The notes: generated from the letters alone by a model not told the origin. A stretch of DNA of 64,000 nt from an uncultured Candidatus Saccharibacteria bacterium (GCA_964630055.1 CAZVRA010000001.1:174483-238482), one strand, 5' to 3'; counted from the first letter of the stretch, positions 21,684 to 64,000 are shown. Translations and numbers: made by a program.

Positions 21684-21755
21684 CAATCCTAGCTGTGACG
21701 GCTGCATTGGCCCCGCTCTATACCTGCATAGGGTAAAAGGAGCGGGGCTTTTTGC

Positions 21756-28358: not shown

Positions 28359-28433
28359 GGCCTCATCGTCTAACGGTTAGGACACCAGGTTTTCATCCTG
28401 GCAATCGGGGTTCGATTCCCCGTGAGGTCACCA
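28359..28433 (+). tRNA. tRNA-Glu (anticodon TTC), CCA encoded
   Basis: Cloverleaf folded by hand. Acceptor stem 7 bp with one G-T pair, D-stem 4 bp, anticodon stem CCAGG/CCTGG, loop TTTTCAT, T-arm CGGGGTTCGATTCCCCG, discriminator A then CCA. Confidence 0.85.
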
Positions 28434-41000: not shown

Positions 41001-41391
41001 CGTGCGTGACAAGGCACTACATGCGGTAGTTATCATACTCATAAGACATTACCTCGGCCTACATGATAGTGAGGACTTAGAGAGTATAGATATAAATTCG
41101 CCGGAAGTCAGACAAGTAGTTGGGCTTATTCTTGATAGAACCAGGATAGTGGATTCTGTGGAGGCAAACAGTACGGATGAAGAGATTAACAAGATTTTGG
41201 CCAGAATAGACGAATTGAAGCGAGAGACTGCCGGTATAACCTATGGAACACAATCGCACGTAAAATCTGCAACGGATAAGCTTCCATTAATGCGACCTGC
41301 GCAAGACAAAAAAGGCCTTGGGGAGTACCCCACACTACAGTCGATGAGAAGTACTGACTCTGAATGCTATGTAACTTTGGATCACTCGTAA
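38026..41391 (+). CDS. Large SF2 DEAH-box helicase with an inserted Zn ribbon (DrmA-like)
   Basis: Motif I FPTGGGKTEAY, motif II IIQDELHLISG, motif III IIASTAT, motif VI QASSRVGRKNPG. The Zn-ribbon insert is CPWCGTH...CPNGNC. 1121 aa. Confidence 0.6.
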   Translation: MSDIKTKDYIEFRTQILDFVRRDLQGPYEESELIDESPASKYSTGIIFPQISLEVPDDGSLDTREQDDEEVGAIEQASSFYPSATGLSFAVSNGVNTINIKLRYGKYRKITAKDYGDVVVKVSGFEATYQGNLTVQSFFDLGDGYLTLKRPMEMHDRDTLLSMAEDNQQFKDVIYRAFKLCKSGWIRTQHEQDIKLSPDSDLKEQIIEGETLKLVLAVKNIPKSQKKICTISVVNTSKTTKPQSDSDKAYYQLHLALTLDNGRPFEDLNDKSFEESWFDDFEEESLHLLYHKRKLYGVGHGISVDWKTNTESDDAVEVYTTTLPSYIVPQMEFTLAGSSQKPDLSIATYAYKERGEIIDNLRLLTSSYSEWIEAIEQESKALPSNLQNIAAKHVEKCKDSLTRMLNGIEIVSKNDDVFRAFQHANEAMLMQRSHTRLQNTKSFADENVSMPESYRNEKDEWRPFQIAFIIMNLVSMSDTDSSERDIVDLIWFPTGGGKTEAYLGLTAFTIFFRRIKYKDRAGGTTVIMRYTLRLLTSQQFQRACTLICACENIRKSTSLYGDEPITVGLWLGSASTPNTLEDAKYRVGELHRGGSQAENPFQVIDCPWCGTHMTKVDRRGIFCYEIKSRPKQFYMWCPNGNCTFSDKQGGLPIIVVDDDIYNRPPTLLFGTVDKFAMLPWKKEASSLFALNNGNQNISPSLIIQDELHLISGSLGTVVGLYETAIDILCSAKSIKPKIIASTATIRKAQEQCKSLYARDVAQFPSPGIDASDSFFAREAPVDDNTPGRLYVGVMPSGKTSTTMQVRLMADVIQGVEILDTDDAVKDTYWTQVVYCNSIRELGSSKSIVFDDVKEYSKSLAKYYGKKPRFYGDRNVQELTSRISAENIPEILRMLENSYPSKDAVDVLLATNMISVGVDINRFGIMTVLGQPKTTSEYIQASSRVGRKNPGLVLTLYSPVKSRDRSHYEQFLRYHQSLYRFVEPTSVTPFSAPVRDKALHAVVIILIRHYLGLHDSEDLESIDINSPEVRQVVGLILDRTRIVDSVEANSTDEEINKILARIDELKRETAGITYGTQSHVKSATDKLPLMRPAQDKKGLGEYPTLQSMRSTDSECYVTLDHS

Positions 41392-47631: not shown

Positions 47632-49080
47632 ATGGCAAAAATTAACACCAATGCAGTGATACTTGCGAGAGTATCCAGTAAAGCCCAGGAAGACGGTTAT
47701 TCGTTGGACGCCCAGACCAAACTGATACGTGCTTACTGTGCGAGAAACAAACTAGACATAATCAAAGAGTTTCGTATATCCGAAACAGCCTCTAAAAATG
47801 AGCAGAGGAACATATTCAGAGAGATGCTGGCCGAGATTAACCGCAGGGGCATAAACCACCTTGTAGTGGAGAAAACTGACCGCCTAACACGTAACTTCAA
47901 AGACGCTGTCGTGGTAGATGACTGGCTGGAACAGGACGAGAATCGGCGGCTACATATGGTCAAGGAGAGCCTGATCATCCATAAACACGCCAAGTCTGAC
48001 ACGAAGCTAATGTGGAACATATTCTTAGCCATCGCCAAGAAATACACTGATAATCTCAGAGAAGAAGTCATGAAAGGCTGGGATGAAAAGCTGGCGCAAG
48101 GATGGATGCCAGCAGTGCCTCCGCCTGGCTATAAAACTATCACAGAGAATGGTAGGAAGATTCACGTTATAGATGAAGACACAGCGTTTATGGTCGAGAG
48201 GGCCTTTAAGTATTTTCTGTTGCCCGAGGGTTGCGTACGAACTGTTGCAGAAGAATTAAGGAGGTGCGGCTTAACAACTGGCAAGGGTAATCCGCACTCC
48301 AAAAGTGCCGTACACAAAATACTTACCAATAAGTTTTATGTGGGGACAATACAATTCAACGGCAATGAGTATCCGGGTGCTCACGAGCCACTGATAGATA
48401 AAGCTCTTTTCAGCAGGGTGCAGAAAAAGATGAATAGAAGAAACGGCATTAAATCTAGTGACTTAAAGTTCTTGTTCAAGGGGTTTATAAGATGTTCAAC
48501 ATGCGGTGCTTTAGTGACTTGGCAGAGGCAAAAAGGACGCCACTACGGCTCCTGCCAGCGCAGAAGTGAGGCATGCAAAAAAGGCTTCATGAGAGAAGAT
48601 CGGGTCGAAGAAATCATCATAGATAGGCTGGGCAAAATTGACGACAAAGACGGTGTACTGTTTGAATCTGTAAAGACAACGTTACTCGAGTACAGGAATC
48701 CATTCTCGGGTACTGATGTGACCAAAATGGAGAGGCTACTCACTGCTCAACTAAGGCGGCTCAAGATGATGGATACAGCCTTGTATGACGATAAGCTTAC
48801 GGGGCTAATTGACCAATCTGTCTACGTGCAAAAAGCTGAGCGCATCAAGCTAAGGGTAGATAGAGTCGAGGCAAGGCTCAGCGAGCTAGAGCTACATGTA
48901 AAAAATATTGAGGACATAACAACGCGCAAAAAATCCAGGTATGCGATGAGAAAACTATATATGCAGTCTGGTTTTGCCGAAAAGCGGCTGATTATCGATA
49001 ATCTGCTCCGTCTAACCTCAAAAGACAATGAAGTGCATATTGACTTGCTACCTATGACAAAGGCCGCCTCTGGAGTATAA
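47632..49080 (+). CDS. Large serine recombinase
   Basis: N-terminal AVILARVSSKAQEDGYSLDAQ catalytic Ser motif. Recombinase domain, Cys-rich zinc ribbon (CSTCGAL...CQRRSEAC) and a C-terminal coiled coil. 482 aa. Confidence 0.8.
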   Translation: MAKINTNAVILARVSSKAQEDGYSLDAQTKLIRAYCARNKLDIIKEFRISETASKNEQRNIFREMLAEINRRGINHLVVEKTDRLTRNFKDAVVVDDWLEQDENRRLHMVKESLIIHKHAKSDTKLMWNIFLAIAKKYTDNLREEVMKGWDEKLAQGWMPAVPPPGYKTITENGRKIHVIDEDTAFMVERAFKYFLLPEGCVRTVAEELRRCGLTTGKGNPHSKSAVHKILTNKFYVGTIQFNGNEYPGAHEPLIDKALFSRVQKKMNRRNGIKSSDLKFLFKGFIRCSTCGALVTWQRQKGRHYGSCQRRSEACKKGFMREDRVEEIIIDRLGKIDDKDGVLFESVKTTLLEYRNPFSGTDVTKMERLLTAQLRRLKMMDTALYDDKLTGLIDQSVYVQKAERIKLRVDRVEARLSELELHVKNIEDITTRKKSRYAMRKLYMQSGFAEKRLIIDNLLRLTSKDNEVHIDLLPMTKAASGV

Positions 49081-49837: not shown

Positions 49838-50959
49838 TTAGCCGCTGCAGGTGCCGGTGCTGATGAGTTCCATGTAGACATTGCGGTCGGCGCCGGTGTC
49901 GGAATCGGCTCCGCTGGGCCTTGGTGCTTGTAGATCAATTTTGGCTGCTGGGGTGCCTTGGGCTAGTAGCTGATCGTAAATTAACTTGGCGCGGGCTACC
50001 GACAGTTTGTAGCCGCTGGCTGTTGGTGTGACGTCTCGGGCTTTGCCAGATATTGTGATTTTAAAATCTTTGCTAGCAAAATTTTTGGCAAACCTGGAGT
50101 ACTTGGCGGTTATATCTGCTGTTTGACTGGGGTACGAGTCCTTGGTGCTGTCTGGCTCAAAAAAGAATGTCTGATGGTCGTATACTTTGTAGCCGCTTAA
50201 GTTTTTACTGTCCGAAAAACCTAAACTTTGGGAGCTGGTGTCGGCCTGAGCCACGCAGTTGCCGGCCGGCGTGCTGGCCACTGATGGGGCTGATTGGGGC
50301 TGCGGGGTTGTTTTGGTATCGGTGCTGGCGCCAGCGCCGGGCACTAAAGCTAGCTCGTTTTGGCTATAAACTATGTTGGTGACTCTGTATTTGCCGTCCT
50401 TTTTTTCGACTATTGTGCGGGCAAACTTGGATTTGGCACCACTTAGGGTATACAAATAGTAGTATTTACTGTCTTTTAAGGTCGAATCTTTTTGCTGGAA
50501 GTTGCCTTTGAGGTTGTCGGCCACATCTTTCATGAATGATTTGTCTTCTTCGGTCGAGGATTCGTTCAGTTTATTAAGCGTGTTGGTGTCGCCGGCAGCG
50601 GCTGCGTTCATGAAGGTTCGTGACGCTCCATTGGCCTGAAGACCGGGCAAAGCCGTAAGCACGATAAAGCCAATGATTGCCAGCAAACAGGCCACGGCAA
50701 TGCCAATAAATAGCGGCGCTTTTGATTTTTTAACTGTTGCCGGTGGCACGACTTGGCTATTAAGCGGTGCGCCTGGCTGCTGCATGGTTGGTCCAGCTGG
50801 GCTGGGCTCTGTGCCAAAACCAGTGCCTGCAGTGTTTGTATTGCCTGGCTGGCTATTTATGCCGCTGGGGTTGTTGGTGTCTGCCGGCCTTGTTTGCTCG
50901 TCCATAAAATTCCTTAATAATTGCTTAGCGTTTATGTTTATAAGATAAATATAGCACAT
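49838..50959 (-). CDS. Membrane-anchored extracytoplasmic protein, possibly with an OmpA-like C-terminus (true start probably the internal Met near 50905)
   Basis: Pro/Gly/Thr-rich N-terminal region, then a TM helix. C-terminal LSVARAKLIYDQLLAQG weakly resembles the OmpA/MotB motif. Confidence 0.35.
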   Translation of the reverse strand: MCYIYLININAKQLLRNFMDEQTRPADTNNPSGINSQPGNTNTAGTGFGTEPSPAGPTMQQPGAPLNSQVVPPATVKKSKAPLFIGIAVACLLAIIGFIVLTALPGLQANGASRTFMNAAAAGDTNTLNKLNESSTEEDKSFMKDVADNLKGNFQQKDSTLKDSKYYYLYTLSGAKSKFARTIVEKKDGKYRVTNIVYSQNELALVPGAGASTDTKTTPQPQSAPSVASTPAGNCVAQADTSSQSLGFSDSKNLSGYKVYDHQTFFFEPDSTKDSYPSQTADITAKYSRFAKNFASKDFKITISGKARDVTPTASGYKLSVARAKLIYDQLLAQGTPAAKIDLQAPRPSGADSDTGADRNVYMELISTGTCSG

Positions 50960-51423: not shown

Positions 51424-53130
51424 ATGAAAAAAATAAATACAAAAAATGAAAACTTTGCTCAAAAATATTTAAAACCAAAAATAATTTTTCCGGTATTGTT
51501 TGCGGTTATTGGGGTCGGCTTGCTTGTGAAAAGTTTTGCCGCCACATCAATATTTTCGGACAATTTCAACAGCTATGCTGCCAACTCTTGCCCTGGCTAC
51601 TCCGATGGCAAAACATTCAATAAGTGGCAGACGGTTTTTTCTAGTTATGGTTGTGTTAATATTAAGCGTTCATCTACCAATCGCTGGCTAAATTTGGCAC
51701 CCAGAGCTGCAACTAGTGATAACGATACGGCATCGGCGCTGGTTGTTGGCCCCAGCTTTACTCAGCCGTTTAGCTTTAGCGCCAAAACTTATACCAATAA
51801 ACAGTTGCGCCAAAATTCAGCGCCAAACGCTTGGGAGACGTCGTGGTTTGTTTGGAACTATACCGACAACGAACATTTTTATTATTTTATACCCAAGGCC
51901 AACGGCTGGGAGCTAGGCAAGCGTGATCCGGCCTATCCTGGTGGGCAGCGGTTTTTAGCTACGTCTGATGTGCAAAAGTATGGTTTGAACACATGGAAAA
52001 AGTTTAAGGTTGACCAACTCGTCGATAACACCATGAAGGTTTATGTTAATGGCGCTTTATTGACCACATTTAAGGATACAGAGCGCCCATACTCGGGCGG
52101 CCGGATCGGCTTTTACACCGAGGATGCCGATGTGCGATTCGACGATGTTGACGTGTCGATTCCTGACGCTACTCCTGCGCTAACTCCCCCCCCGACCCCA
52201 ACTTCTAGACCAGCACCAACGCCTACTCCAACTCCATCGCCAACGACATTTAACACCGCTCCGGGCCGCGCGCTGCCCGACACCTTGTACGGTGTTACCA
52301 CCGAGTCGGTAGGAAATTTGACTTCACTCAGCGATTCTCTAACCAGGCACGCCAAGCGGCCAACGACACGCATCGTTTTTCAACAGGGGACAAATCCTGC
52401 CGACTACACATCGGCCATCAGTAATCTTAGGAACACTAGTTACGTAATGGGCGAAATTTTGGACTCGACTGCGCTCAAAAACACATCGGTCGATAACTAC
52501 CGAACCAGGACTCGCAGCTTTGTTAACCAGTTCAAAAACAACATCGATATTTACGAAATCGGCAACGAGCTCAACGGTGAATGGGTGGGCACGCCGGCTG
52601 ATATTAACGCCAAGGTTCAGGCGGCCTACGATGTTGTCGAGAAAGAAAACGCCTCACTTAACTTAAAGTCGGCGGTGACGCTGAACTATTGGCCCAGCAG
52701 CAATTGCTATTCTTACCCCTGGGAGGCGACCGAAAGTTTTGCGCAGCAGATGCCTGCCGAGGTTAGAAACGGCGTCGATTACGCGCTACTTAGTTTCTAT
52801 GAAACGGCTTGTTCGCCGCGCGCCAAGCCTACCGATCAGCAGTTTATCGACATTTTTAGCAAGCTAAAGACGATTTTCCCAAATGCCAAGATTGGCATGG
52901 GCGAGGTTGGAGCCCAGGGCAAAGCCGATGGTCTGCCTGCCGACCCAACATTGGCCGAAAAGCAACAGCTAATTAGCCGATATTACGGTATGCACAACAG
53001 CCTTAAAAGCGCTCTAGGCCCACGCTATGTTGGTGGCTACTTCTGGTGGTATTACTACCAGGATGCGGTTCCATACAACCGATCGGGCTCTATCTGGCCA
53101 GCGCTAGAAGACGCCTTCAACAAGTACTAA
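51424..53130 (+). CDS. Secreted protein: lectin-like (DUF1080/LamG-like) domain, Pro/Thr linker, clan GH-A (GH5-like) glycoside hydrolase domain
   Basis: Signal peptide. GRIGFYTEDADVRFDDVDV resembles the C-terminal strand of DUF1080. Linker PTPTSRPAPTPTPTPSP. YEIGNELNGEW (NE acid/base) and IGMGEVGA (nucleophile-like). Confidence 0.4.
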   Translation: MKKINTKNENFAQKYLKPKIIFPVLFAVIGVGLLVKSFAATSIFSDNFNSYAANSCPGYSDGKTFNKWQTVFSSYGCVNIKRSSTNRWLNLAPRAATSDNDTASALVVGPSFTQPFSFSAKTYTNKQLRQNSAPNAWETSWFVWNYTDNEHFYYFIPKANGWELGKRDPAYPGGQRFLATSDVQKYGLNTWKKFKVDQLVDNTMKVYVNGALLTTFKDTERPYSGGRIGFYTEDADVRFDDVDVSIPDATPALTPPPTPTSRPAPTPTPTPSPTTFNTAPGRALPDTLYGVTTESVGNLTSLSDSLTRHAKRPTTRIVFQQGTNPADYTSAISNLRNTSYVMGEILDSTALKNTSVDNYRTRTRSFVNQFKNNIDIYEIGNELNGEWVGTPADINAKVQAAYDVVEKENASLNLKSAVTLNYWPSSNCYSYPWEATESFAQQMPAEVRNGVDYALLSFYETACSPRAKPTDQQFIDIFSKLKTIFPNAKIGMGEVGAQGKADGLPADPTLAEKQQLISRYYGMHNSLKSALGPRYVGGYFWWYYYQDAVPYNRSGSIWPALEDAFNKY

Positions 53131-53142: not shown

Positions 53143-53625
53143 CTACTGTTTTTGAGCCGGGTTCTTGATGGCCTTAACAACCTGAGAATCGTCCTTGAGA
53201 TTTTCCCAGAATAGAACTTGTTTGCTTTCTATATACATAGCATTTTCGGGGCCATGAAGTTCGTTGCCTAGCTTGGCCAAAGACAAACTTTGCGGTTGAT
53301 TTTGGTTCTGATTTTGAGCTTGGTTTTTGTTGGTGTCGGGTTGTACGCTTTGTTGAACTTGCAAATAATAGATGTCGCTCAGCTTGTAGCCATTGCCGGT
53401 AATGGCATTGATTTTGCCAAAATAAACCTGGCCGTTTGTTAGGAATACAGCCTGGTATCTGTCTGCCTGAACGGCGCTGGCAAAGCTGCTTTGGCGCTGC
53501 ATGAAATATCGCGTAACGGCCAACCCCAGCAGGGCAGCTATAAGTAGCATTATTAGGATGGTTCGCCCAGAGGCAGCGGTTAGGGCATTGCGCCTTCGAT
53601 TGGTACGAATATTAGCTTGATCCAT
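53143..53625 (-). CDS. Membrane protein with a Q/N-rich segment (160 aa)
   Basis: One TM helix. QNQNQNQPQ low-complexity stretch. Confidence 0.3.
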   Translation of the reverse strand: MDQANIRTNRRRNALTAASGRTILIMLLIAALLGLAVTRYFMQRQSSFASAVQADRYQAVFLTNGQVYFGKINAITGNGYKLSDIYYLQVQQSVQPDTNKNQAQNQNQNQPQSLSLAKLGNELHGPENAMYIESKQVLFWENLKDDSQVVKAIKNPAQKQ

Positions 53626-53835: not shown

Positions 53836-54666
53836 ATGAAATTTTTAACTAAGCGTCTATGGTTATATGCAGTAGTCGCCACAGCTTTTATTTTTGCTTT
53901 GTCGCCAGTGGCGCTAGCTCGTCAGCAAACATCTCAGGGCTATGTTGCCACCGAAAAGCTTAAGGACGGCTCTTTGGTCAGCCTTGGTCAGGGTAGTAGC
54001 CAAAATGTTGAGCATAGTACCGTAGACAATCGAGGCCGTCTGTTGGGAGTTGTTGTAAATCCTACACAGACTGTTGTAAATTTTGCTGAAGGCCAAAATA
54101 AGGTACAAGTTGCAACAACGGGCGAAGCGCCGCTCTATGTTTCGGATGTAAATGGTGTTATTAATGCCGATGACCCGCTGACGGTGTCGCCAGTTAGCGG
54201 AGTGGCCATGAGAGCGAGCACTGCCGGTAAGATTATTGGTTTTGCGCGGCAAAATTTTGATAGCACCAAAGCAAACAATATTCAAGATGTTGAACTGATG
54301 TCCAATGATGGCCAAAAAAAGACCACCAAAGTAGGCCTGATTCAGGCTCAAATAAATGTCCAAGATTGGGTGCCAAGCGGTACTCAAAACAGTGCTATAT
54401 TGAACGGTCTGCGGGGTGTGGTTGGCAACATGGCTGGCCGACCGGTGTCTAATATTCAGGCTACAGCAGTAGTGGTTATGGTGCTTTTTGCGCTCATTGC
54501 GTCAAGTATTATTTTGTATAGCTCAGTATCGTCTAGTATTCATTCTATTGGTCGCAATCCGCTGTCCAAGGGTATTATCCGCCGCAGCTTGGTGCTTATG
54601 GTTGGGCTTGCTATTATGTTATGGATAGGTACTGCATTAGCAGTTTATGCAATTTTAGGAGGGTAA
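53836..54666 (+). CDS. Membrane protein: secreted N-terminal domain plus a C-terminal two-helix hairpin resembling ATP-synthase subunit c but lacking the carboxylate; first gene of the atp operon
   Basis: Signal peptide. C-terminal ...SIGRNPLSKG (compare the c-subunit RQP loop), then LMVGLAIMLWIGTALAVYAILGG, which aligns with E. coli c helix 2 ([22 protein letters not shown]) with Ala at the Asp61 position. Lies 5 nt upstream of atpF. Confidence 0.35.
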   Translation: MKFLTKRLWLYAVVATAFIFALSPVALARQQTSQGYVATEKLKDGSLVSLGQGSSQNVEHSTVDNRGRLLGVVVNPTQTVVNFAEGQNKVQVATTGEAPLYVSDVNGVINADDPLTVSPVSGVAMRASTAGKIIGFARQNFDSTKANNIQDVELMSNDGQKKTTKVGLIQAQINVQDWVPSGTQNSAILNGLRGVVGNMAGRPVSNIQATAVVVMVLFALIASSIILYSSVSSSIHSIGRNPLSKGIIRRSLVLMVGLAIMLWIGTALAVYAILGG

Positions 54667-54671
54667 GGTAA

Positions 54672-55292
54672 ATGTATTTTGAAATGTTGGTTTTGGTGGC
54701 ACTGTTACTGCTTAACTCTGGTTTGCTTGTTGTGTGGTTGTCTGTGCGTTCGCATAAGTCCAAGTTAGAAGCCGACTACAAGCGGCAGTTGGAGGCAGCC
54801 ATCCTTAAACCAGAGTTTGTAGCTGGTTTGCGCCGCGAGCTAGAACAACAAATGCAAGATAAATTCACTACTGCACTTAAGCCTATCGACACCGAGACCA
54901 AACGATTTATCGAGGCAGTCAACAAAGAAGCGGCTTCGTCGCTTAAAACATCGACCGAATCGAACCGCAGTTTAATAGAACAGTCTTTGCAGAAATATAC
55001 TCAAGAAATACAGGCATTGCTCAAAGAGGATATTGCTAGTTTGCAAGCCGGTGTTAGCAACGCCCAAAATTCCTTAAACGGCATAGAGCGCGATTACAAA
55101 ACGGCGTTGGACCAGCAGCGGCAGGTTTTGGTGGCGCGGGCGCAAACATTGGCCAGGGATCAATTGGCTGATCTTTTGGTAGAATATTTGCACGCCAGTG
55201 TAGCCGGGCTAGAAATTGGTGATCAACAGGAGTTTATACTAAGTAAGCTCGAAGAAAACAAACAGACGCTACTACAGGAGCTAGCACAGTGA
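54672..55292 (+). CDS. atpF: F-type ATP synthase subunit b-like (N-terminal TM plus a long coiled coil)
   Basis: Single N-terminal TM helix, Q/L/E-rich helical remainder. Positioned ahead of the delta gene. Confidence 0.45.
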   Translation: MYFEMLVLVALLLLNSGLLVVWLSVRSHKSKLEADYKRQLEAAILKPEFVAGLRRELEQQMQDKFTTALKPIDTETKRFIEAVNKEAASSLKTSTESNRSLIEQSLQKYTQEIQALLKEDIASLQAGVSNAQNSLNGIERDYKTALDQQRQVLVARAQTLARDQLADLLVEYLHASVAGLEIGDQQEFILSKLEENKQTLLQELAQ

Positions 55293-55753
55293 AAAAGAGT
55301 GAGTCTAGAGCTGACTGCAATCTGCCTTGGCAGCTAGCTAGTCGGGAGACATGCAGTCGCTTGTTGTTAGAAATCGACGAGAGGCTGGCGGGCATAGTAG
55401 ATAGCGATACACCTGTTAGCGATGAAATGTTGCAACTGCTAAGCGCCAACGGTCTAGCATCTAGCGCTAAAACTAATTTAACAGAACTGAGCCGATGCTT
55501 GTCGCAAACCACACGCCATCGCAGTTATCTAAAAATAACAACAGCAACGCCCTTAACAGTTGAATCCCAGCAATCAATTTTGCAATGGGTGGATCGTAAT
55601 ATCGGCAACAACCAAATTTTAGTAAGCTTTATAACCGATAGTAGCGTCATTGGCGGAGCCATCATACAAACCCCAACTAAACGGCTTGACTATACTATAG
55701 ACGGCAATAGCTCTAGTGGGCGGCAGCGTATTGCGGCAATGGTGGCGGCATGA
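55289..55753 (+). CDS. atpH: F-type ATP synthase subunit delta (OSCP), GTG start
   Basis: C-terminal VIGGAIIQTPTKRLDYTIDGN resembles the delta LIGGVVIRIGDRVIDGS. Coupled to its neighbours by GTGA/ATGA overlaps. Confidence 0.5.
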   Translation: MKKSESRADCNLPWQLASRETCSRLLLEIDERLAGIVDSDTPVSDEMLQLLSANGLASSAKTNLTELSRCLSQTTRHRSYLKITTATPLTVESQQSILQWVDRNIGNNQILVSFITDSSVIGGAIIQTPTKRLDYTIDGNSSSGRQRIAAMVAA

Positions 55754-57165
55754 GTCAGTTATTTAAGACTTTGGCCAAACAGAACAACCAAGTCGGCGAA
55801 GTTCGGCTAGTAAAAAGTTTTTTGATAACAGTAGTTGGTTTGGGCAATGCTCAGGTAAGAGCTCGAGTTTTGTTTGATAACGGCGCCATAGGCATGGTCC
55901 GCTCATTTAGTGGTGACGAAACAATTGTTTACTTGCTATCATCCGACGATGACACCATAACTGTTGGTCAGCAGGCGGTCATACAATCTGATGATATGAC
56001 TATTCATCCTAGTACTAAGTTAAAGGGCAGAGTTGTAGACCCGCTGCTAAGGCCCCTAGATGATGGCCCGGAGATTGTTGCTAAGTCTAGTCAGCAGATT
56101 TTTGGCGAGGCTCCGCGGTTTGACCAGCGCCTGCTATTAGACCAGCAGCTGGAAACTGGTGTGACTATTATCGATACGCTATTTCCAATTGTAATGGGTC
56201 AGCGTATTGCGCTAATGGGGGACCCTAAGTCGGGTAAAACAACCTTTGCTGCTCAGTTGGCAATTCATCAGGCAAAATTTGGCCGAACAGTTGTGTTTGT
56301 GCTGATTGCCAAGCGCCGTACCGATGTTGAACGACTAATTGGTATTTTGACTAGGGCTGGCACTATGGACAAAGTGGTTCTAGTAGTGGCAGATAGTTTT
56401 GCAGCTTTGCCAATGGCCTATCTGGCACCGTACAGCGGTTGTTCGGTGGCCGAGTATTTTTGGCAGCATGGAGAAGACGTGGTAATAATTTACGATGATC
56501 TAACCAACCATGCCAAAATTTACCGAGAAATGTCATTGCTGGAAGGTGCTTCGCCGGGCCGAGAGTCTTACCCAGGAGACATGTTCTATCGGCATTCGTC
56601 ACTTTTGGAACGAGCCGGAAGGCTAGCGTCCAATCAGCGAACCCTGACGGCTTTACCTATTATAACTATTGCCAACAACGATATAACTAGCTTTTTGTCT
56701 ACTAGTATTATATCGATTACTGACGGGCAATTGGTGTTCGATACCGAAGAAATGCAGCGTGGAGCTGCGCCGCCGATTAATACGGGTATATCGGTATCGC
56801 GTGTTGGTGGGCGGGCTCAGCAGATGCTGCAAAAACAGATGGCCCAGGATATTTTTAAGGCTTTGGCCGACTACCGACAAGCCAGCCAATTTTCGCACTT
56901 CGGCCAAGAGCTACCCGAGCATTACCGTGAAGCGCTGCGTTTGGGCGAGCGTTTGCAGCAGATGTTTAACCAGGAACCGAACGAATTTTTCTCGCTGGCT
57001 GAACAGCAAATCATACTCAAAACGGCCTTTTTGGCTGGCGAGTCTTCGCTGGATATACCCGAAATTAAGAGGCGGGTGCGGGCAACTATGGATGCGGCCT
57101 TGGCCACTCAGACTCACGAAGATATGGCTAACGAATTAATAAAAATGCAACGAGGTAAAAAATAA
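55750..57165 (+). CDS. atpA: F-type ATP synthase subunit alpha (divergent P-loop GDPKSGKT)
   Basis: N-terminal beta-barrel region, P-loop, and overall alpha-like length and topology (471 aa). Confidence 0.75.
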   Translation: MSQLFKTLAKQNNQVGEVRLVKSFLITVVGLGNAQVRARVLFDNGAIGMVRSFSGDETIVYLLSSDDDTITVGQQAVIQSDDMTIHPSTKLKGRVVDPLLRPLDDGPEIVAKSSQQIFGEAPRFDQRLLLDQQLETGVTIIDTLFPIVMGQRIALMGDPKSGKTTFAAQLAIHQAKFGRTVVFVLIAKRRTDVERLIGILTRAGTMDKVVLVVADSFAALPMAYLAPYSGCSVAEYFWQHGEDVVIIYDDLTNHAKIYREMSLLEGASPGRESYPGDMFYRHSSLLERAGRLASNQRTLTALPIITIANNDITSFLSTSIISITDGQLVFDTEEMQRGAAPPINTGISVSRVGGRAQQMLQKQMAQDIFKALADYRQASQFSHFGQELPEHYREALRLGERLQQMFNQEPNEFFSLAEQQIILKTAFLAGESSLDIPEIKRRVRATMDAALATQTHEDMANELIKMQRGKK

Positions 57166-58028
57166 TGTTTAATGATCCGCGGGTTTTAAAACGCGAGCTA
57201 CAAACTATCCGCGATATCAGTACTTTAACAGAGGTATTCGAACACACTGCTAGTATAAAAATTAAAGCTGTGCGTCAGCGAGTTTTGAGCGCAAAAGTGT
57301 TTTTTAATGATTTGTGGCAAATTTATAGTCAGCTTCGGGTTGATGTACCGCACGGTTTGCATGACCGAGTAAATCGCAAAGATCTATTGATTTTTATTGC
57401 TTCGCCGGCGGGGCTGTCGGGACAACTGGACCAGCAAAACTTTGAAGAAATGATGCGAGTTTACAAACAGGATGAGCACGACGTGCTGGTGATTGGCTCG
57501 CATGGGGCGCAGCTGCTTAGGCAGGCTGGCATAAAACCAGTGCGAGCTTTTGAGACGCCCGATACGGCTGGCGCCTTTACGGTTCAGCCCATAGTGGAGG
57601 CAATTGCTAACTATAACTTTGCAACTGCTTTTTACCAGTCTTATGTGTCGCTAACAGTTCAGCACGGCGCAAAGTTACAGCTACTGCTTAACGCGCTAGA
57701 ACTAAGCCAAGAAGAACGAGACATGCTCGATAGGGGAGATGTAGAGATAATCTCGCCAGAAAACTTTTTGTTTGAGCCGTCAATTGGCGAGGTGGTTAGG
57801 GCCATGGAGCGTGTTATGCTCAACACCTCGATTGATCATTTGCTTCAGGAGTCGCGTCTTGCTCAACTGGCTGGTAGATTTACGACCATGACACTGGCTA
57901 ATCAGCGAGCCGAGGAGGCCACAAAGCGCACGTTCTTGCGTTATCTGAGCGCTAAAAGGTCTAAACGCGATGAAATGACTCGCCAAATTATGGCCGCAAC
58001 TATGGCCACAAAAGGAGCCGCAGCATGA
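57165..58028 (+). CDS. atpG: F-type ATP synthase subunit gamma
   Basis: N-terminal LKRELQTIRDISTLTEVFEHTASIKIKAVRQR matches the gamma N-helix pattern. C-terminal ...MTRQIMAATMATKGAAA matches the gamma C-helix. Confidence 0.6.
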   Translation: MFNDPRVLKRELQTIRDISTLTEVFEHTASIKIKAVRQRVLSAKVFFNDLWQIYSQLRVDVPHGLHDRVNRKDLLIFIASPAGLSGQLDQQNFEEMMRVYKQDEHDVLVIGSHGAQLLRQAGIKPVRAFETPDTAGAFTVQPIVEAIANYNFATAFYQSYVSLTVQHGAKLQLLLNALELSQEERDMLDRGDVEIISPENFLFEPSIGEVVRAMERVMLNTSIDHLLQESRLAQLAGRFTTMTLANQRAEEATKRTFLRYLSAKRSKRDEMTRQIMAATMATKGAAA

Positions 58029-59344
58029 GCACCACCAAAGCCATCAATGCTAATCAACTTGGATTTGTCATAGCCGTAAATGGCCTAGTGGTGACTGTTC
58101 GGCTGTCTGGGCGTCAACCAGCCGTTGGCGAAATGCTTACCATCAACGAAAAACCGGGCGTAGTACTTTTTGTGGAATCGGTCAATGATACCGAAGCCGA
58201 ATGCCTGAATATCCGCGGCAGTAACAGCATCTGCCGTGGAGACAAAATTTCTGGTCAGGGCATCAGCCTAGGCCTGCCTGCTGGCAAGCCGGTTCTGGGG
58301 CGAGTTTTTAATGCGCTTGGTGAAGTTATGGATGGCCAAGCCACACTTAAAAAAACCGACTTAGTGCCATACAATGCGCCAATTCAGCAAAAGCTGCGCA
58401 AACTGCATAAGCCAGAAGTTTTAGAGACTGGTATTAAGGTGATCGATTTTTTGGCACCTTTTGTAAAAGGCCGCCGAATAGGCATTATTGGTGGTGCCGG
58501 TGTTGGCAAGACTGTTCTGACAACCGAAATGATCCACAACGTAGCCGACAAAAAAACCGCACTCAACTTTTTTGTTGGTATTGGTGAGCGTATCCGCGAA
58601 GGTCACGAGTTATTTCATGCTCTGCAAAAACGAGGTCTAGTCGACAACACGGTTATGTATATGGGTCAAATGAACGACAATGCTGCGCTGCGTTCTATGG
58701 TTGGCCCTTCTGCGGCGACAGTGGCGCGTAGTTTTAGCGACGAAGGCAAAGATATTTTGTTTTTCATAGACAATATTTTTCGTTTTGTTCAGGCTCGCAA
58801 TGAGCTGGCCGCTATGCGTGGTGGTATCCCGTCGGAGGGTGGTTACCAGGCGAGCATGTTTTCGGATCTGCATTGCTTTGAGGACTCGTTAGTCAGTAGC
58901 GGCAAGGGATCTATTACGAGCATTCAGTCTATTTACATTCCGGCCGATGATTTAGGCGACCCAGCCGTGGTTGAAATTAGTCAGCAGTTAGATTCGACCA
59001 TTGTGCTGTCGCGCGATATTTTTGAGCGAGGTGTCTTCCCGGCAGTTGATTTGCTGGCTACTACTAGCACACTGATTACTCCGGAGGTTTTGGGTGAGCG
59101 GCACTATCGACTAGTGGGCAGAGTTAAGGCAATTATGCGCAAATATTACAATTTACGAACCATTACGGCCATTGTTGGCGAAAATGAATTATCGCCAGAG
59201 GATCGTGCCGACTTCTTGCATGCTCAGGAAATAACCAAGTTTTTCTCGCAGGATATGTTTGTAACCGAAGATCTAACTGGCAAAAAAGGCCAGTATTTTA
59301 CCCGAGAGCAAACACTAAAAGGTCTCGAAGCAATTTTGCAGTAG
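58025..59344 (+). CDS. atpD: F-type ATP synthase subunit beta
   Basis: P-loop GGAGVGKT. Catalytic GIGERIREG. DELSEED-like ENELSPEDR. 439 aa. Confidence 0.85.
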   Translation: MSTTKAINANQLGFVIAVNGLVVTVRLSGRQPAVGEMLTINEKPGVVLFVESVNDTEAECLNIRGSNSICRGDKISGQGISLGLPAGKPVLGRVFNALGEVMDGQATLKKTDLVPYNAPIQQKLRKLHKPEVLETGIKVIDFLAPFVKGRRIGIIGGAGVGKTVLTTEMIHNVADKKTALNFFVGIGERIREGHELFHALQKRGLVDNTVMYMGQMNDNAALRSMVGPSAATVARSFSDEGKDILFFIDNIFRFVQARNELAAMRGGIPSEGGYQASMFSDLHCFEDSLVSSGKGSITSIQSIYIPADDLGDPAVVEISQQLDSTIVLSRDIFERGVFPAVDLLATTSTLITPEVLGERHYRLVGRVKAIMRKYYNLRTITAIVGENELSPEDRADFLHAQEITKFFSQDMFVTEDLTGKKGQYFTREQTLKGLEAILQ

Positions 59345-59355
59345 GATAGACCAAA

Positions 59356-59625
59356 GTGAAGCATTTTACCGCAACGCCAGAATTGACCGTCCGGGCTCAT
59401 AGTATGAGGGGTATGCTGTACGAAGGCCAGGCTTTTTCGGTTTCGGCCAAAAACAAGCTGGGACCCTTTGATATACTGCCCGGACATGCAAATTTGATAT
59501 CTATTCTGCTAGATTGCAGTATAAATATAGAAACCCCAACCGGCTCTAAGCAATTTGCTATTGACAGCGGGCTGATTAAAGTTTCGGATAATGCTATCGA
59601 TTTGTTTGTTGATACCACCGTTTAA
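59356..59625 (+). CDS. atpC: F-type ATP synthase subunit epsilon (short form, beta-sandwich only)
   Basis: GPFDILPGHANLISIL matches the epsilon GIYPGHAPLLTAI. 89 aa, lacking the C-terminal helical hairpin. Confidence 0.6.
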   Translation: MKHFTATPELTVRAHSMRGMLYEGQAFSVSAKNKLGPFDILPGHANLISILLDCSINIETPTGSKQFAIDSGLIKVSDNAIDLFVDTTV

Positions 59626-59716: not shown

Positions 59717-62700
59717 ATGGATATCAAAAAAAGTGGGGCCGATAAAGGCACCGATAACTACGGTTTAGAAAGTCTACAGGTCACGCCCAATCAGTCAGGG
59801 CGCTCTTTTACTTCTACTCCAGATAGCGAAGCCTTTATACCTAGGCGACCGCCGGTTTGGAAAAATCGGCTATTTTTGGGCGCGCTGTTGCTGCTGATAG
59901 TTTTATTTTTTTTGCTTGGCTTGTGGCTATTTGGTCGCCGTATCAAGCAGGGTGGCACTCAGTCGGGCGATATACTAGGCACATATAAGCAAACTTCTGC
60001 ACCTGTTTTGGGCGATACCGCTAACAAACCAGCCCAATCTTTGCTAGACGACAAAGTGTCTATTAACGGCAGTTTGTTACTAAATGGCGATTTAGCGTTA
60101 TCGAACCAGGCGGTTCAAAGCCTGGCTAACCGTCTGCGACCAGTTTTGTTGGGGCCGCCGGCTGGTGGAGCGCAGCAAGTTGGTAGTATTAATTTGTCTG
60201 GACGGATTGTCGCTAACAATTTTCAGGGCAATGGTTCGGCGTTGACTAGCCTAAACGCCAACAATATAAATTCCGGTACGCTTAGCAATGATCGGCTTGA
60301 TCCAAGTGTTACGCGGCTAGGCCAGAACATTCCGGTTGCGGCTATTCAGGGTAACGTACTGGGGTCAATTAATAATATTACGTCTAATTCGGGCGGGAAT
60401 GTCAATGTAGTTGGTGGCTTTGGCATAGATATACTGAACGATTCTGCTACCAAAACCATTACCATTTCTAACTCAAGCACCGGGGGCGATATAACAGCGG
60501 TTATCGCCGGCACGGGCTTAACGGGTGGCGGGACGTCTGGCGACGTGACGCTTAGCATGGATGCTTCCACGGTCACCTTGCAAGGTAACAATTTTAATGG
60601 CGCCAATCAGCTGGTTCAGCTAGATGGTTCGAACAAGCTGCCGGTGGCCGATGGCTCTAATTTAACCAATCTAAATGCTAGCAACATTTCTGCTGGCACC
60701 TTGGCTGATGCTCGGTTGAGCAGCAATGTCGCCAGGTTAAATGCTAGCCAAACCTTTACTGGCAACAATACATATTCTGGAAATACTAAGTACCAAAACA
60801 GCGCTAATTCCACATCAGCCTTCCAAATCCAAAATGCCACTGGCACTAGCAACCTGTTTGTGGCCGACACTACCAACACTCGCATTGGCATTGGCACGGC
60901 TGCACCGGCTTACGCCCTAGATGTGGCGGGCGACATAAATTCCAGTACCGCCCTTAAGGTGGGCGGCAACACTGTTTGTACCTCTAGCGGCTGTGCCGTG
61001 GCGAGCGGATCTAGCTATTATATTCAGAATGGCACAGGCGTGCAGTCTAATGCCAACTTAAATATTCAGTCGGCCGCTGCTGGCAGCACGGTGGCCGTGC
61101 TCCAAGGTGCGGCTGGCCAAACCGCCGACATCTTAGAGGCTAAAAATTCTACGGGTACGGTTATGGCCAGTATCGACGCCGCTGGCAACATCAACACCAC
61201 TGGCCAGTACCGAGTTAATGGCAGCCAAATATCCAGCGCTAATCTTAGTAATAACTCTAATTTGGCTAAACTGAACGGTAACGAAACCTACACCGGCAAC
61301 AACACTTTTACTGGTACTGTAAAACAACAAAACGCTACCAACTCTACCTCGGCATTCCAGATCCAAAACGCTGCTGGTACCGGCACAGCACTAGTAGTTG
61401 ACACCACCAATCTTAGGCTTGGCGTTGGCAACAATACTCCCGCCTATGCCCTAGACGTTACCGGAGATGTTAACGCTAGCACTAGCCTTAAGGTTGGTGG
61501 TACTACTGTTTGTACCTCCACTGGCTGTACTATTAGCAGTGGCTCTGGCTACTATATCCAGAACGGCACTACCAAACAAGCGGCTAACTTTAACATTCAA
61601 AGTGCGGCGGCGAGTAGCGTGGCTGGCGTGCTGCAAGGCGCCACCAGCCAAACCGCCGACCTGCTCCAAGCCAAGAACGCCTCTGGCACGACTCTGGCTA
61701 GTATCGACGCTGCTGGCAACATTAATACCACTGGCCAGTACAAAGTCAACGGTAGTCAAATCGCTTCTAGTAACCTGTCAGATAGTTCTAATCTAGCTAA
61801 ACTGGATGCTAACCAAACCTTCACTGGCAACAATGCTTTCACTGGCACTGTAAAACAACAAAATACTACCAACTCTACATCAGCCTTCCAAATCCAAAAC
61901 GCTGCTGGCACTAGCAACCTCTTCGTGGCTGACACCACCAACACTCGCATTGGTATCGGCACGGCTGCTCCCGCCTACGCTCTGGACGTAACCGGAGACA
62001 TCAACGCTAGCAATAGTCTTAAGGTTGGTGGCACAACTGTTTGTACCTCCACTGGCTGTACTGCTGCTGGTGGTTCTGGCAGCTACATCCAAAACGGCAC
62101 TGCTAGCCAAACGGCTAACTTTAACATTAAATCTGCTGCCGCCGCCAGCACAGTAGCTGTACTGCAAGGTGCCACTAGCCAAACCGCCGACCTGCTTCAA
62201 GCCAAGAACTCTACCGGCACAACCCTAGCTAGCATTGATGCTGCTGGCAACATAAACACCACTGGTCAGTACAAAGTCAACGGCAGCCAAATTAGCTCAT
62301 CTGCCCTAAGCAACGACAGTAACCTAGCCAAGCTAAATGCTAGCCAGACGTTTAGTGGTGTCAATACGTTTAGCGGCGGAATCGTGACCAACAGTTTAAC
62401 GCCAACTGCGGCCTTAACAATTGGCGACAGCAGCCAGTCGTTTACTTTGCAGGGCACAGCGGCCTCTACTTTGACCGCCGCAGCCAGCGGCTTTAGTACT
62501 ACGGTTGGTTTTGCCGGAACCCCCGTAGCCAACTTGCAGTACAACTTTGACATGGCGGCGCCCTCGGGAACATACACTATTTGTACTACTTATGGTAACT
62601 GTGCTGGCACCGGTGGAGGCGTGACCACTACCGGCGGAACGGCCAACAAAGTGGCTAAATTCCAAAATGGCTCCGGTATAACCGACTCCAACATTACAGA

Positions 62701-64000
62701 TACTGGCAGTTTGATCACTCTTGGGTCGCGGTCGTTGGTCCAGCCGTCGGCCAACTCGACAACCGCCTTCCAAATCCAAAACGCTGCTGGCACTAGCAAT
62801 CTGTTTGTGGCTGACACCACCAATAACCGTGTTGGCATTGGCACGGCCAGCCCCGGCTACACGCTGGACGTTAATGGCACGGTCAATGCCAGCACCAACA
62901 TTTATGTTAACGGTACGGCTGTTTGTACGGTAACGGTCTGCGCCTCGTCGGTTGGCTCCGGCAATTATATTCAAAACAGTACGACTACTCAGACGGCCAA
63001 TCTGAGTATTCAGTCAGCCAACAACGCTTATGTTGCAGCTACTTTGCAAGGCGCCACCAGCCAAACCGCCGACCTGCTCCAAGCCAAGAACGCCTCTGGC
63101 ACGACTCTGGCTAGTATCGACGCTGCTGGCAACATTAATACCACTGGCCAGTACAAAGTCAACGGTAGTCAAATCGCTTCTAGTAACCTGTCAGATAGTT
63201 CTAATCTAGCTAAACTGGATGCTAACCAAACCTTCACTGGCAACAATGCTTTCACTGGCACTGTAAAACAACAAAATACTACCAACTCTACATCAGCCTT
63301 CCAAATCCAAAACGCTGCTGGCACTAGCAACCTCTTCGTGGCTGACACCACCAACACTCGCATTGGTATCGGCACGGCTGCTCCCGCCTACGCTCTGGAC
63401 GTAACCGGAGACATCAACGCTAGCAATAGTCTTAAGGTTGGTGGCACAACTGTTTGTACCTCCACTGGCTGTACTGCTGCTGGTGGTTCTGGCAGCTACA
63501 TCCAAAACGGCACTGCTAGCCAAACGGCTAACTTTAACATTAAATCTGCTGCCGCCGCCAGCACAGTAGCTGTACTGCAAGGTGCCACTAGCCAAACCGC
63601 CGACCTGCTTCAAGCCAAGAACTCTACCGGCACAACCCTAGCTAGCATTGATGCTGCTGGCAACATAAACACCACTGGTCAGTACAAAGTCAACGGCAGC
63701 CAAATTAGCTCATCTGCCCTAAGCAACGACAGTAACCTAGCCAAGCTAAATGCTAGCCAGACGTTTAGTGGTGTCAATACGTTTACGGGCACAGTCTTGC
63801 AGCAAAACGCCACCAACTCCACCAGCGCCTTCCAGATCCAGAATGCCACTGGCACTAGCAACCTGTTTGTGGCCGACACCACCAACACCCGAATTGGCAT
63901 TGGCACGGCTGCACCGGCTTACACCTTGGATGTGGCAGGCGATTTAAATGTGTCTAGCGGCTCAACTATCAGGATTGGTGGCACGGCTATTTGTGGCCCA
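59717..64000 (+). CDS. Giant repetitive Asn/Thr/Gly/Ala-rich surface protein, partial (runs off the window); absent from the ORF track because no stop falls within the window
   Basis: ATG at 59717, then an open frame to 64000. N-terminal TM helix (LFLGALLLLIVLFFLLGLWLF). Repeating roughly 140-aa units containing STSAFQIQNAAGTSNLFVADTTNTRIGIGTAAPAYALDV-GDINAS, LKVGGTTVCTSTGC, and VLQGATSQTADLLQAKN-SGTTLASIDAAGNINTTGQYKVNGSQI. Confidence 0.7.
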   Translation, partial: MDIKKSGADKGTDNYGLESLQVTPNQSGRSFTSTPDSEAFIPRRPPVWKNRLFLGALLLLIVLFFLLGLWLFGRRIKQGGTQSGDILGTYKQTSAPVLGDTANKPAQSLLDDKVSINGSLLLNGDLALSNQAVQSLANRLRPVLLGPPAGGAQQVGSINLSGRIVANNFQGNGSALTSLNANNINSGTLSNDRLDPSVTRLGQNIPVAAIQGNVLGSINNITSNSGGNVNVVGGFGIDILNDSATKTITISNSSTGGDITAVIAGTGLTGGGTSGDVTLSMDASTVTLQGNNFNGANQLVQLDGSNKLPVADGSNLTNLNASNISAGTLADARLSSNVARLNASQTFTGNNTYSGNTKYQNSANSTSAFQIQNATGTSNLFVADTTNTRIGIGTAAPAYALDVAGDINSSTALKVGGNTVCTSSGCAVASGSSYYIQNGTGVQSNANLNIQSAAAGSTVAVLQGAAGQTADILEAKNSTGTVMASIDAAGNINTTGQYRVNGSQISSANLSNNSNLAKLNGNETYTGNNTFTGTVKQQNATNSTSAFQIQNAAGTGTALVVDTTNLRLGVGNNTPAYALDVTGDVNASTSLKVGGTTVCTSTGCTISSGSGYYIQNGTTKQAANFNIQSAAASSVAGVLQGATSQTADLLQAKNASGTTLASIDAAGNINTTGQYKVNGSQIASSNLSDSSNLAKLDANQTFTGNNAFTGTVKQQNTTNSTSAFQIQNAAGTSNLFVADTTNTRIGIGTAAPAYALDVTGDINASNSLKVGGTTVCTSTGCTAAGGSGSYIQNGTASQTANFNIKSAAAASTVAVLQGATSQTADLLQAKNSTGTTLASIDAAGNINTTGQYKVNGSQISSSALSNDSNLAKLNASQTFSGVNTFSGGIVTNSLTPTAALTIGDSSQSFTLQGTAASTLTAAASGFSTTVGFAGTPVANLQYNFDMAAPSGTYTICTTYGNCAGTGGGVTTTGGTANKVAKFQNGSGITDSNITDTGSLITLGSRSLVQPSANSTTAFQIQNAAGTSNLFVADTTNNRVGIGTASPGYTLDVNGTVNASTNIYVNGTAVCTVTVCASSVGSGNYIQNSTTTQTANLSIQSANNAYVAATLQGATSQTADLLQAKNASGTTLASIDAAGNINTTGQYKVNGSQIASSNLSDSSNLAKLDANQTFTGNNAFTGTVKQQNTTNSTSAFQIQNAAGTSNLFVADTTNTRIGIGTAAPAYALDVTGDINASNSLKVGGTTVCTSTGCTAAGGSGSYIQNGTASQTANFNIKSAAAASTVAVLQGATSQTADLLQAKNSTGTTLASIDAAGNINTTGQYKVNGSQISSSALSNDSNLAKLNASQTFSGVNTFTGTVLQQNATNSTSAFQIQNATGTSNLFVADTTNTRIGIGTAAPAYTLDVAGDLNVSSGSTIRIGGTAICGP
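61632..62372 (+). repeat. 741-bp direct repeat copy 1 (identical at every position compared by eye to 63045-63785)
   Basis: A base-by-base comparison at several points shows identity from tgcaaggcgccaccagcc to gtgtcaatacgttta. Divergence follows immediately after. The offset is 1413 bp, which keeps the reading frame. Confidence 0.8.
63045..63785 (+). repeat. 741-bp direct repeat copy 2
   Basis: See copy 1. Identical minus-strand shadow ORFs at 61756..61962 / 63169..63375 and 61880..62200 / 63293..63613 confirm the match. Confidence 0.8.

Follow-up and report, generated by a model that had tools for sequence, protein, structure and literature searches.

A seven-gene operon with the layout of an ATP synthase operon was analysed at positions 53836-59625 of a 64,000-nucleotide (nt) stretch of DNA from an uncultured Candidatus Saccharibacteria bacterium (GCA_964630055.1, CAZVRA010000001.1:174483-238482); this whole stretch is called the window below. 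The results indicate with good confidence that the operon is a distinct, paralogous and non-canonical F-type ATPase cluster. With considerably less assurance, we lean towards the view that it is a second F-type cluster of Saccharimonadia (TM7, part of the CPR, the candidate phyla radiation) which is not a proton-driven ATP synthase and which applies ATP-driven force to surface structures. Apart from its first gene, the operon follows the canonical order; that gene takes the place of atpE and encodes a protein, designated X, which ends in a subunit c-like hairpin lacking the ion-binding carboxylate. The seven open reading frames (ORFs) are as follows.

53836-54666, + strand: X, 276 amino acids (aa), defined by ORF call, AlphaFold2 (AF2) model and family alignments
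54672-55292, + strand: b-like peripheral-stalk candidate, 206 aa, with a single N-terminal transmembrane helix and a helical remainder
55289-55753, + strand: delta/OSCP-like protein, 154 aa, PF00213
55750-57165, + strand: F1 alpha-like protein, 471 aa
57165-58028, + strand: F1 gamma-like protein, 287 aa, PF00231
58025-59344, + strand: F1 beta-like protein, catalytic, 439 aa
59356-59625, + strand: short epsilon, 89 aa, PF02823

The original prediction, made from the sequence alone, had described these genes as tightly coupled by overlaps, and direct reading of the junctions bears this out for all seven ORFs. Start and stop codons overlap as GTGA between the b-like gene and delta, ATGA between delta and alpha, TAATG between alpha and gamma, and ATGA between gamma and beta; X is separated from the b-like gene by a 5-nt gap with GGAGG, and beta from epsilon by an 11-nt gap. 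A scan for promoters and terminators gave a signal no better than that of shuffled sequence. Databases label the subunits of the operon as F0F1 ATP synthase.

Searches against Pfam showed matches above the gathering score for delta, alpha, beta, gamma and the N-terminal domain of epsilon. Delta matched OSCP (PF00213) at 34.8 bits (cut-off 22.3) over the C-terminal two thirds of the protein only; alpha and beta matched ATP-synt_ab (PF00006 at 214 and 200 bits, respectively), and gamma matched ATP-synt (PF00231) at 76 bits. Epsilon matched ATP-synt_DE_N (PF02823) at 44.9 bits over aa 11-87, so that it consists of the beta-sandwich domain only, without the C-terminal helices; at 89 aa here and 87-102 aa across the family, it is the short form without regulatory helices that had been predicted. 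The b-like protein matched nothing in Pfam or NCBIfam, including subunit b (PF00430). The predicted presence of b, delta, alpha, gamma, beta and epsilon is therefore supported by family matches for the last five, and the remaining protein is b only by its position, its N-terminal transmembrane helix and its helical content; the AF2 model made from its single sequence is all-helical and of low confidence (predicted local distance difference test, pLDDT, 62). When the NCBIfam equivalogs of the canonical subunits (atpA, atpD, atpG, atpH and atpC) were used, every F1 subunit scored below the curated cut-off: alpha 380 bits against 554, beta 391 against 463, gamma 62 against 194 (TIGR01146), delta 25 against 57.5 and epsilon 43 against 67. 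Delta was below all NCBIfam delta cut-offs.

To judge from its motifs, the F1 head is catalytically intact. Beta carries a Walker A motif (GGAGVGKT, 58490-58513), the catalytic-Glu motif GERIREG and a DELSEED-like NELSPED, and alpha carries the Arg-finger motif SVSRVGG. The alpha P-loop GDPKSGKT, singled out as unusual by the original prediction, lies at aa 157-164 (56218-56241); it fits the Walker A consensus GxxxxGK[ST] and varies across relatives as GD[TNAS]K[STVA]GK[TS], and is thus valid and a trait of the family, in which the beta P-loop is invariant. Alpha is shorter than canonical alpha by about 14 N-terminal and about 35 C-terminal residues; since its alignments begin about 14 residues into canonical alpha, the N-terminal delta-binding helix would be shortened. 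Comparison of beta with solved structures showed that canonical F1 beta is nearest (351 bits), with G1 beta of Mycoplasma mobile further away (239 bits). Two known classes of ATPase were rejected as identities for the cluster: the N-ATPase (atpDCQRBEFAG), because the gene order differs, there is no a or c nearby and the alt_F1F0 scores are 306 against 750 for alpha and 381 against 752 for beta; and the ATPase of type III secretion systems or flagella, because alpha and beta occur together with gamma, delta and epsilon.

The original prediction described the gene before atpF as encoding neither a nor c but a 276-aa protein with a secreted N-terminal domain and a C-terminal hairpin, and the AF2 model and the sequence agree on this. 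X comprises a signal peptide (aa 1-28), a beta-rich ectodomain of about 150 aa (aa ~32-178), a juxtamembrane helix (187-200) and a two-helix hairpin (206-275). The model, built on 27 homologues (pLDDT 80.7), places helices at 2-21, 206-240 and 242-275, the latter two forming the hairpin, and the signal-peptide-like first helix is followed in the sequence by a VALA/R cleavage-type motif. As the loop IGRNPLSKGIIRR is positively charged, it is predicted to be cytoplasmic, with the ectodomain and the C-terminus outside. The modelled membrane topology is that of subunit c, namely a two-transmembrane hairpin with both termini outside and a cytoplasmic R-Q/N-P loop. This loop is the most conserved part of X: IGRNPLS (aa 238-244; 54547-54567, + strand) is invariant or near-invariant in every X alignment, and GRNP is read in all 191 distinct family members, a set that was selected by the motif G[RK]NP and was also used for the column counts given below.

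X is an unannotated protein family with no library entry, having no match in Pfam, NCBIfam (including the AtpI/AtpZ families) or PHROG. A word-indexed search gave 462 clusters at 90% identity, and an exhaustive search of 1.84 billion representatives (50% identity) gave 720 matches at E<=1e-30 and 12,794 at E<=1e-3; every named match is a 'hypothetical protein' of Saccharibacteria or Patescibacteria. The invariant motifs are kept despite an overall identity of 28-50%. When the ectodomain was compared with the PDB by Foldseek, the matches were phage capsid decoration/cement proteins and the C-terminal fragment of phi29 gp12 (E 5e-5 to 1e-2, with modest template modelling scores, TM-scores).

The predicted alignment of the hairpin with subunit c through an RNP loop was also recovered, as both a PDB-wide profile search and Foldseek returned c subunits and nothing else for this part of X. 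The hairpin profile, run against 177,635 distinct PDB sequences (E<=10), had the c subunit of Chloroflexus aurantiacus as its sole match (E 0.069), in which AIGRNPE pairs in register with SIGRNPL and the Glu of the c subunit lands on a hydrophobic column of X; a likeness to c was thus found by profile search, PF00137 itself giving no match. By Foldseek the hairpin matched only F-type c subunits (Chloroflexus, Bacillus PS3, spinach and Spirulina), with TM-scores of 0.80-0.86 and root-mean-square deviations (rmsd) of 1.4-2.4 Å, the best being Chloroflexus 9itt_I (TM-score 0.86, rmsd 1.4 Å). Alignment by hhalign with seven c subunits gave the same register (P = 0.002) with a probability of only 13%, and a c-subunit hidden Markov model (HMM) ranked X as the best ORF in the window (E 0.14). 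From these similarity tests, and from the location of X where atpE would be expected, we judge it likely that the hairpin is derived from subunit c.

The original prediction had placed Ala where the essential Asp/Glu of subunit c sits. The loss of the carboxylate holds, and the residue is to be amended: the position aligned with the ion-binding Asp/Glu (E. coli Asp61), at +20 from the loop Arg, is I260 (codon 54613-54615, + strand), and the Ala is the adjoining A259. Among the 191 family members this position is hydrophobic in 190 and carries D/E in one. Helix 2 contains no acidic residue, and in helix 1 a Ser/Ala/Gly-rich face replaces the GxGxGxG packing motif of c. Position +14 of helix 2 is polar in many members (Gln 66%, Glu 9%) and hydrophobic in the clade of the window; as a substitute ion site it was rejected, being hydrophobic in that clade and near the cytoplasmic face.

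No subunit a or c was found among the 647 ORFs of at least 40 aa in the 64-kb window, and no canonical a or c in 88 related loci, in line with the predicted absence of a nearby a subunit. The search was made with the c HMM and E. coli subunit a, with heuristics off, on window ORFs of at least 40 aa and on ORFs of at least 50 aa in the 80 loci of a locus scan described below (L009-L088); the other eight loci (L001-L008), reached from homologues of X or beta, were checked from Pfam gene tables.

Canonical operons do occur in other Saccharibacteria, where they are intact (atpBEFHAGDC) with an alpha of about 511 aa. In rhodopsin-bearing Saccharibacteria the cluster runs without interruption as a-c-b-delta-alpha-gamma-beta-epsilon (Jaffe, 2022; Table S1). 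A single set, starting with AtpZ-a-c-b-delta-alpha and continuing with the remaining subunits, is present in Southlakia epibionticum, where transposon sequencing showed every component to be dispensable (Wang, 2023). BlastKOALA counts list one a/b/c set and two sets of alpha/beta/gamma in the complete Saccharimonadales genomes of S. aalborgensis, GWC2_44_17 and M. amalyticus (accessions with two such sets being CP005957, CP011211 and GCA_025273655.1), and one of each subunit in TM7x and RAAC3; several near-complete CAILAD01 genomes have alpha/beta/gamma(/epsilon) without a/b/c in the same counts, for which the sensitivity of BlastKOALA is limited (PMC12592800, Table S5). The simplest reading is that many Saccharimonadia have a canonical F1Fo and a second cluster, some have only one of the two, and oral lineages lack the second. 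Given the canonical operons in the group and the 2:1 subunit counts, canonical a and c genes elsewhere in the source genome are plausible, but they would belong to their own F1. The original prediction had offered two alternatives, Fo genes elsewhere or a non-canonical complex; the evidence suggests the latter, and both may hold. From its gene order, the operon looks like a duplicate of atpBEFHAGDC from which atpB was lost and in which atpE was rebuilt into X.

Sequence comparison places the operon in hundreds of Saccharimonadia lineages. The same seven genes, with X first, were found in L001-L008, which are all the contexts reached from X or beta homologues and include contigs of 0.3-1.2 Mb. 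A wider scan was keyed on the divergent neighbour of X, here called 'up':

53143-53625, - strand: 'up', 160 aa, a membrane protein with one transmembrane pass and a strongly conserved C-terminal domain

This protein (160-175 aa) is better conserved than X, has the invariant motifs FLTNGQVYFG, DIYYLQVQQ and VLFWEN, and showed no match in Pfam, NCBIfam or PHROGs. It is encoded in 475 GTDB species genomes, essentially all Saccharimonadia, of which the best 80 loci were kept. The X operon adjoins 'up' in 44 of the 80, in four arrangements (37 divergent, 6 tandem and 1 convergent). In 14 loci whose flanking sequence is almost complete (at least ~7.5 kb on each side), 'up' has no X operon beside it. 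'up' was therefore rejected as an obligatory subunit; it is a frequent, not obligatory, neighbour, and its membership in the system is uncertain. Between X and delta, a homologous b-like family was found in 37 of the 44 operon loci, and the delta-like family was found in 34.

Several variations on this layout were seen. A gap of 0.7-2.4 kb of unrelated sequence between gamma and beta splits the operon in L023, L053, L058, L063, L074 and L082; judged by reading the sequences, the insert of L023 includes a sugar-kinase-like gene and that of L082 a histidine-phosphatase-like gene. In L063, a long-read complete genome (CP064960.1), alpha and beta are each in several ORFs, for which frameshift errors or decay are possible; L081 is another complete genome with the operon (OY970378.1). 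At a distance of about 1-4 kb past 'up', 20 of the 44 operon loci (L016, L023, L028, L078 and others) share two more genes, encoding a secreted protein of about 187 aa with a C-terminal transmembrane anchor and a multi-transmembrane protein of about 205 aa.

From the gene content and its conservation, the topology of X, the c-like hairpin with its lost carboxylate and the absence of a and c nearby, we infer a ring, its rotation and a client at the surface. In this mechanism, copies of X would form a c-like ring, and the invariant cytoplasmic IGRNPLS loop, as the counterpart of the R-Q/N-P loop of the c subunit, would dock gamma and epsilon. With neither a subunit a nor a membrane carboxylate there would be no ion translocation, so that the complex would run as an ATPase only. 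Driven by ATP hydrolysis, the ring of X and the crown outside the cell would rotate, or come under torque, against the head held by b and delta, and mechanical energy would reach the cell surface; likely targets would be the giant fibre-like neighbours or the Pam pili that these epibionts deploy on their hosts, or else the wall. We put forward the rotating crown tentatively, recognizing that the chances are somewhat against it. Its fullest version, a rotary F1 which turns a ring of ion-blind, c-derived hairpins with external domains, and which as an ATP-powered 'outboard rotor' would pass torque across the membrane of an ultrasmall epibiont and operate giant fibres or Pam pili to grip or attack a host, is a speculative proposal.

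A candidate for such a client adjoins the operon:

59717-64000, running off the end of the window, + strand: giant fibre-like ORF of at least 1428 aa, starting 92 nt after epsilon

The predicted protein has an N-terminal transmembrane segment and repeats of about 140 aa. Two identical antisense ORFs (61756-61962 and 63169-63375) point to a near-perfect tandem duplication of about 1.4 kb within the giant ORF, and an assembly collapse or expansion is possible there. Giant ORFs after epsilon were also found in L001, in L008 and in 8 of the 32 scan loci in which epsilon was found. The X ectodomain itself recurs in large surface proteins: the first ~115 positions of its profile match internal or C-terminal domains of large neighbours in L047 (E 9e-22) and L080 (E 7e-11), and by BLASTP (1e-9) the module is present in a 3091-aa protein of L085. 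These proteins with an X-ectodomain-like domain are located as follows.

L047:2-2689: large surface protein
L080:7294-9687, - strand: large surface protein
L085:528-9800: large surface protein, 3091 aa

A module shared by X and fibre proteins hints at a physical interaction, and the giant fibre-like protein is a possible client of the motor. In L080, the ectodomain-bearing protein, which has no GRNP hairpin, fills the divergent slot beside 'up' that is the usual place of the X operon. In L085, a divergent X-like C-terminal hairpin with the loop SMGRNPMAS (L085:2-535) lies directly upstream of the 3091-aa fibre protein; there is no alpha or beta gene within 10 kb, and the hairpin protein may be uncoupled from F1 genes. 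A published report describes 'ATP synthase components' co-localized with the new Pam pilus system and tail-fibre-like proteins, and reads this as coupling to ATP production. A Pam pilus operon within the window itself was considered and rejected, the genes upstream being a MoxR-vWA cluster, a defence island and secreted enzymes.

Four other explanations were weighed. The one that survives best, though we consider it unlikely, is that the complex does not rotate: X would be a static membrane anchor or stator, as has been proposed for the protein with a signal peptide and two transmembrane segments in Mycoplasma Type 3, and the F1-like head a non-rotary or limited-stroke ATPase engaged, for example, in the export or assembly of giant proteins, like FliI/FliJ. 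The homologues FliI and SctN give good scores with alpha and beta, the operon has giant secreted or anchored proteins as neighbours, and the Mycoplasma paper considers a two-transmembrane protein a possible stalk substitute. However, gamma, epsilon, the delta-like and the b-like protein are all kept in canonical order, which amounts to a full rotor-stator parts list and not to an export-gate ATPase; the most conserved part of X is the loop that binds gamma and epsilon in c rings; and no export-gate proteins were seen nearby.

Two further explanations appear improbable, and about equally so. In the first, the operon encodes an ordinary ATP synthase with atpB and atpE elsewhere, and X is an accessory or assembly protein (AtpI/AtpZ-like) encoded upstream of atpF. 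Split atp operons are known in other bacteria, the window is 64 kb of a 292-kb contig in a genome of roughly 1 Mb, and the database annotation agrees with this explanation. It is difficult to reconcile with the scores of every F1 subunit, which fall below the equivalog cut-offs, with the intact atpBEFHAGDC operons and ~511-aa alpha of canonical Saccharibacteria, and with the two alpha/beta/gamma sets beside one a/b/c set in complete relatives; X, moreover, is kept with the operon in every case seen, has a c-type loop and matches neither AtpI nor AtpZ. In the second, the F1 and stalk sit on the canonical c rotor (and canonical a) of another atp operon, with X as an ion-blind ring member or a tether. 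Acetobacterium woodii and V-type rings provide examples of mixed c rings in which some hairpins are inactive; X is c-like, and related genomes have canonical a/b/c alongside a second F1 set. Nevertheless, the operon keeps its own b-like and delta-like stalk without an a, and several near-complete CAILAD01 genomes are those listed without a/b/c in the BlastKOALA counts of limited sensitivity; as X lacks the GxGxGxG packing motif, its co-packing with c is not obviously favoured. Finally, it is very improbable that the cluster is what is left of an atp operon duplicate in decay, without a function today: a and c have been lost, unrelated sequence is inserted between gamma and beta in some lineages and alpha and beta are fragmented in L063, but all seven ORFs here are intact with coupled starts and stops and preserved catalytic motifs, and hundreds of divergent lineages have kept both the operon and X, invariant motifs included.

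Several points weigh against a force-generating, c-derived motor, and they bear on different parts of it. As to ancestry, the sequence likeness of the hairpin to c appears marginal (PF00137 without a match to X at E<=1, hhalign probability 13%, PDB match at E 0.069), and a two-helix hairpin is a simple fold. As to ion blindness, the Gln or Glu at +14 in many members means that a shallow polar site exists. As to the rotor, the model of X is that of a single chain, its assembly into a ring that binds gamma and epsilon is putative, and there is no subunit a nearby to anchor the b-like stator against a rotor; the shortened alpha N-terminus and delta N-domain have to be accommodated as well. As to the client, only about one in four of the scan loci with an epsilon gene has a giant ORF after it, and the window contains no Pam operon. 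As to the paralogy, the absence of a and c covers the window and the 88 loci, and such genes are possible elsewhere in the source genome; the second alpha/beta/gamma sets of PMC12592800 are presumably of the X-operon type, but S. aalborgensis, GWC2_44_17 and M. amalyticus are not among the 80 loci kept, so that equating their second alpha/beta set with the X operon is only an inference.

Other features of the window were recorded. The cluster at 16178-23255 (+ strand), where the G+C content is higher (~50%), was read from the sequences as encoding a MoxR-like AAA ATPase with a vWA-type membrane protein before it and a DUF58-like protein after it; secreted proteins rich in Pro/Thr and Gly come next, and one of them has an LVNTG sortase-like motif. 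A mobile/defence island (28359-49305) lies beside tRNA-Glu (28359-28433) and is flanked by two large serine recombinases, at 28393-30126 (- strand) and 47632-49080 (+ strand). It contains a DISARM-like set consisting of DrmE_C (33723-36311), a NERD/PhoH-like protein (36308-38029), a helicase (38026-41391) and an MZB/DUF1998-type protein (41364-43211), together with a Dcm methylase, an HNH nuclease, a TrwB/HerA-like ATPase and an HTH-Fic protein. Genes for two secreted or anchored proteins, at 49838-50959 (- strand) and 51424-53130 (+ strand), lie in the interval from this island to the operon; one of the pair has a weak OmpA-like C-terminal domain, and the other, of 568 aa, has a 3-keto-disaccharide-hydrolase-like (lectin-type) domain and a Pro/Thr linker. 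No equivalents of these two were seen in L005-L008, which are more distant loci.

If the preferred reading of a second, non-synthase cluster is right, a large and conserved share of Saccharimonadia 'ATP synthase' annotations would refer to a different machine, one without a proton path and with subunit c turned into a surface-exposed protein, and KEGG-style 'F-type ATPase completeness' scores for these genomes would mix two systems. If a rotor with external domains exists as well, part of the puzzling 'ATP synthases' of respiration-less CPR bacteria would not be synthases, and the co-localization of Pam and 'ATP synthase' genes would reflect energy delivery to surface structures, not coupling to ATP production. 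The cluster would then be a counterpart, of shared or separate origin, of the F1-like motors of Mycoplasma that keeps a peripheral stalk and a recognizable c-type hairpin, and a good system in which to study the conversion of rotary ATPases to extracellular mechanical work. In a literature coverage that was incomplete, no paper was found on X, its c-like hairpin or the lack of a and c in the cluster.

Compared with canonical F1Fo, including that of Southlakia, TM7x and rhodopsin-bearing Saccharibacteria, the cluster has the same gene order from the c slot onwards, intact F1 motifs and recognizable gamma, delta and epsilon domains. It differs in that there is no a, the c slot holds an ectodomain fusion without the carboxylate or GxGxGxG, alpha is truncated at both ends, epsilon has no helical domain and the scores fall below curated cut-offs. 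The c subunit of Chloroflexus aurantiacus (PDB 9itj/9itt), a separate protein of 76 aa, carries its Glu in helix 2 at a position where X is hydrophobic, and X has in addition a 200-aa N-terminal extension; Chloroflexota are reported as the sister group of CPR. A 'non-respiratory' F-type ATP synthase homologue has been described beside type-4a pili in Omnitrophota, with a beta that clusters with Saccharimonadia beta, and has been proposed to serve in attaching to host cells or in motility on them (Seymour et al., 2023; PMC10066038). The Omnitrophota genomes of that study also have giant ORFs; the neighbours in the window are a giant fibre-like protein and 'up', in contrast to the type-4a pilus genes of the Omnitrophota loci.

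A further close parallel is with the F1-like X0 complexes of Mycoplasma, the Type 2 complex (the G1-ATPase of M. mobile gliding) and the Type 3 complex (MIB-MIP), in which ATP hydrolysis energizes a surface system: gliding is proposed to be powered by Type 2, and antibody cleavage by MIB-MIP depends on Type 3. Both there and here a seven-gene cluster is found in genome-reduced, host-dependent bacteria, with counterparts of alpha, beta, gamma and epsilon but not of a or c. The Mycoplasma cluster is an extra one beside a canonical atp operon; here the source genome is known from the window only. The architecture of X fits the descriptions of MMCAP2_0577 and MMOB1650, a likeness of architecture only, with no sequence match to the Mycoplasma families; X has 276 aa and a c-type RNP loop, compared with 85-127 kDa for the Mycoplasma counterpart. 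The present cluster has a b-like and delta-like stalk, whereas Mycoplasma has no b or delta but a 12-transmembrane protein and a small cytoplasmic protein, both absent here. Alpha and beta are closer to canonical F1 than to the Mycoplasma families, and their scores against the NCBIfam MSC_0619/MSC_0618 or MMOB1660/1670 cut-offs are all below (266/520, 366/570, 305/600 and 297/850). F1-like ATPases re-purposed from ATP synthase are already known; the present cluster, widespread in Saccharimonadia and mis-annotated as ATP synthase, would be unusual in its conversion of subunit c into a surface protein.

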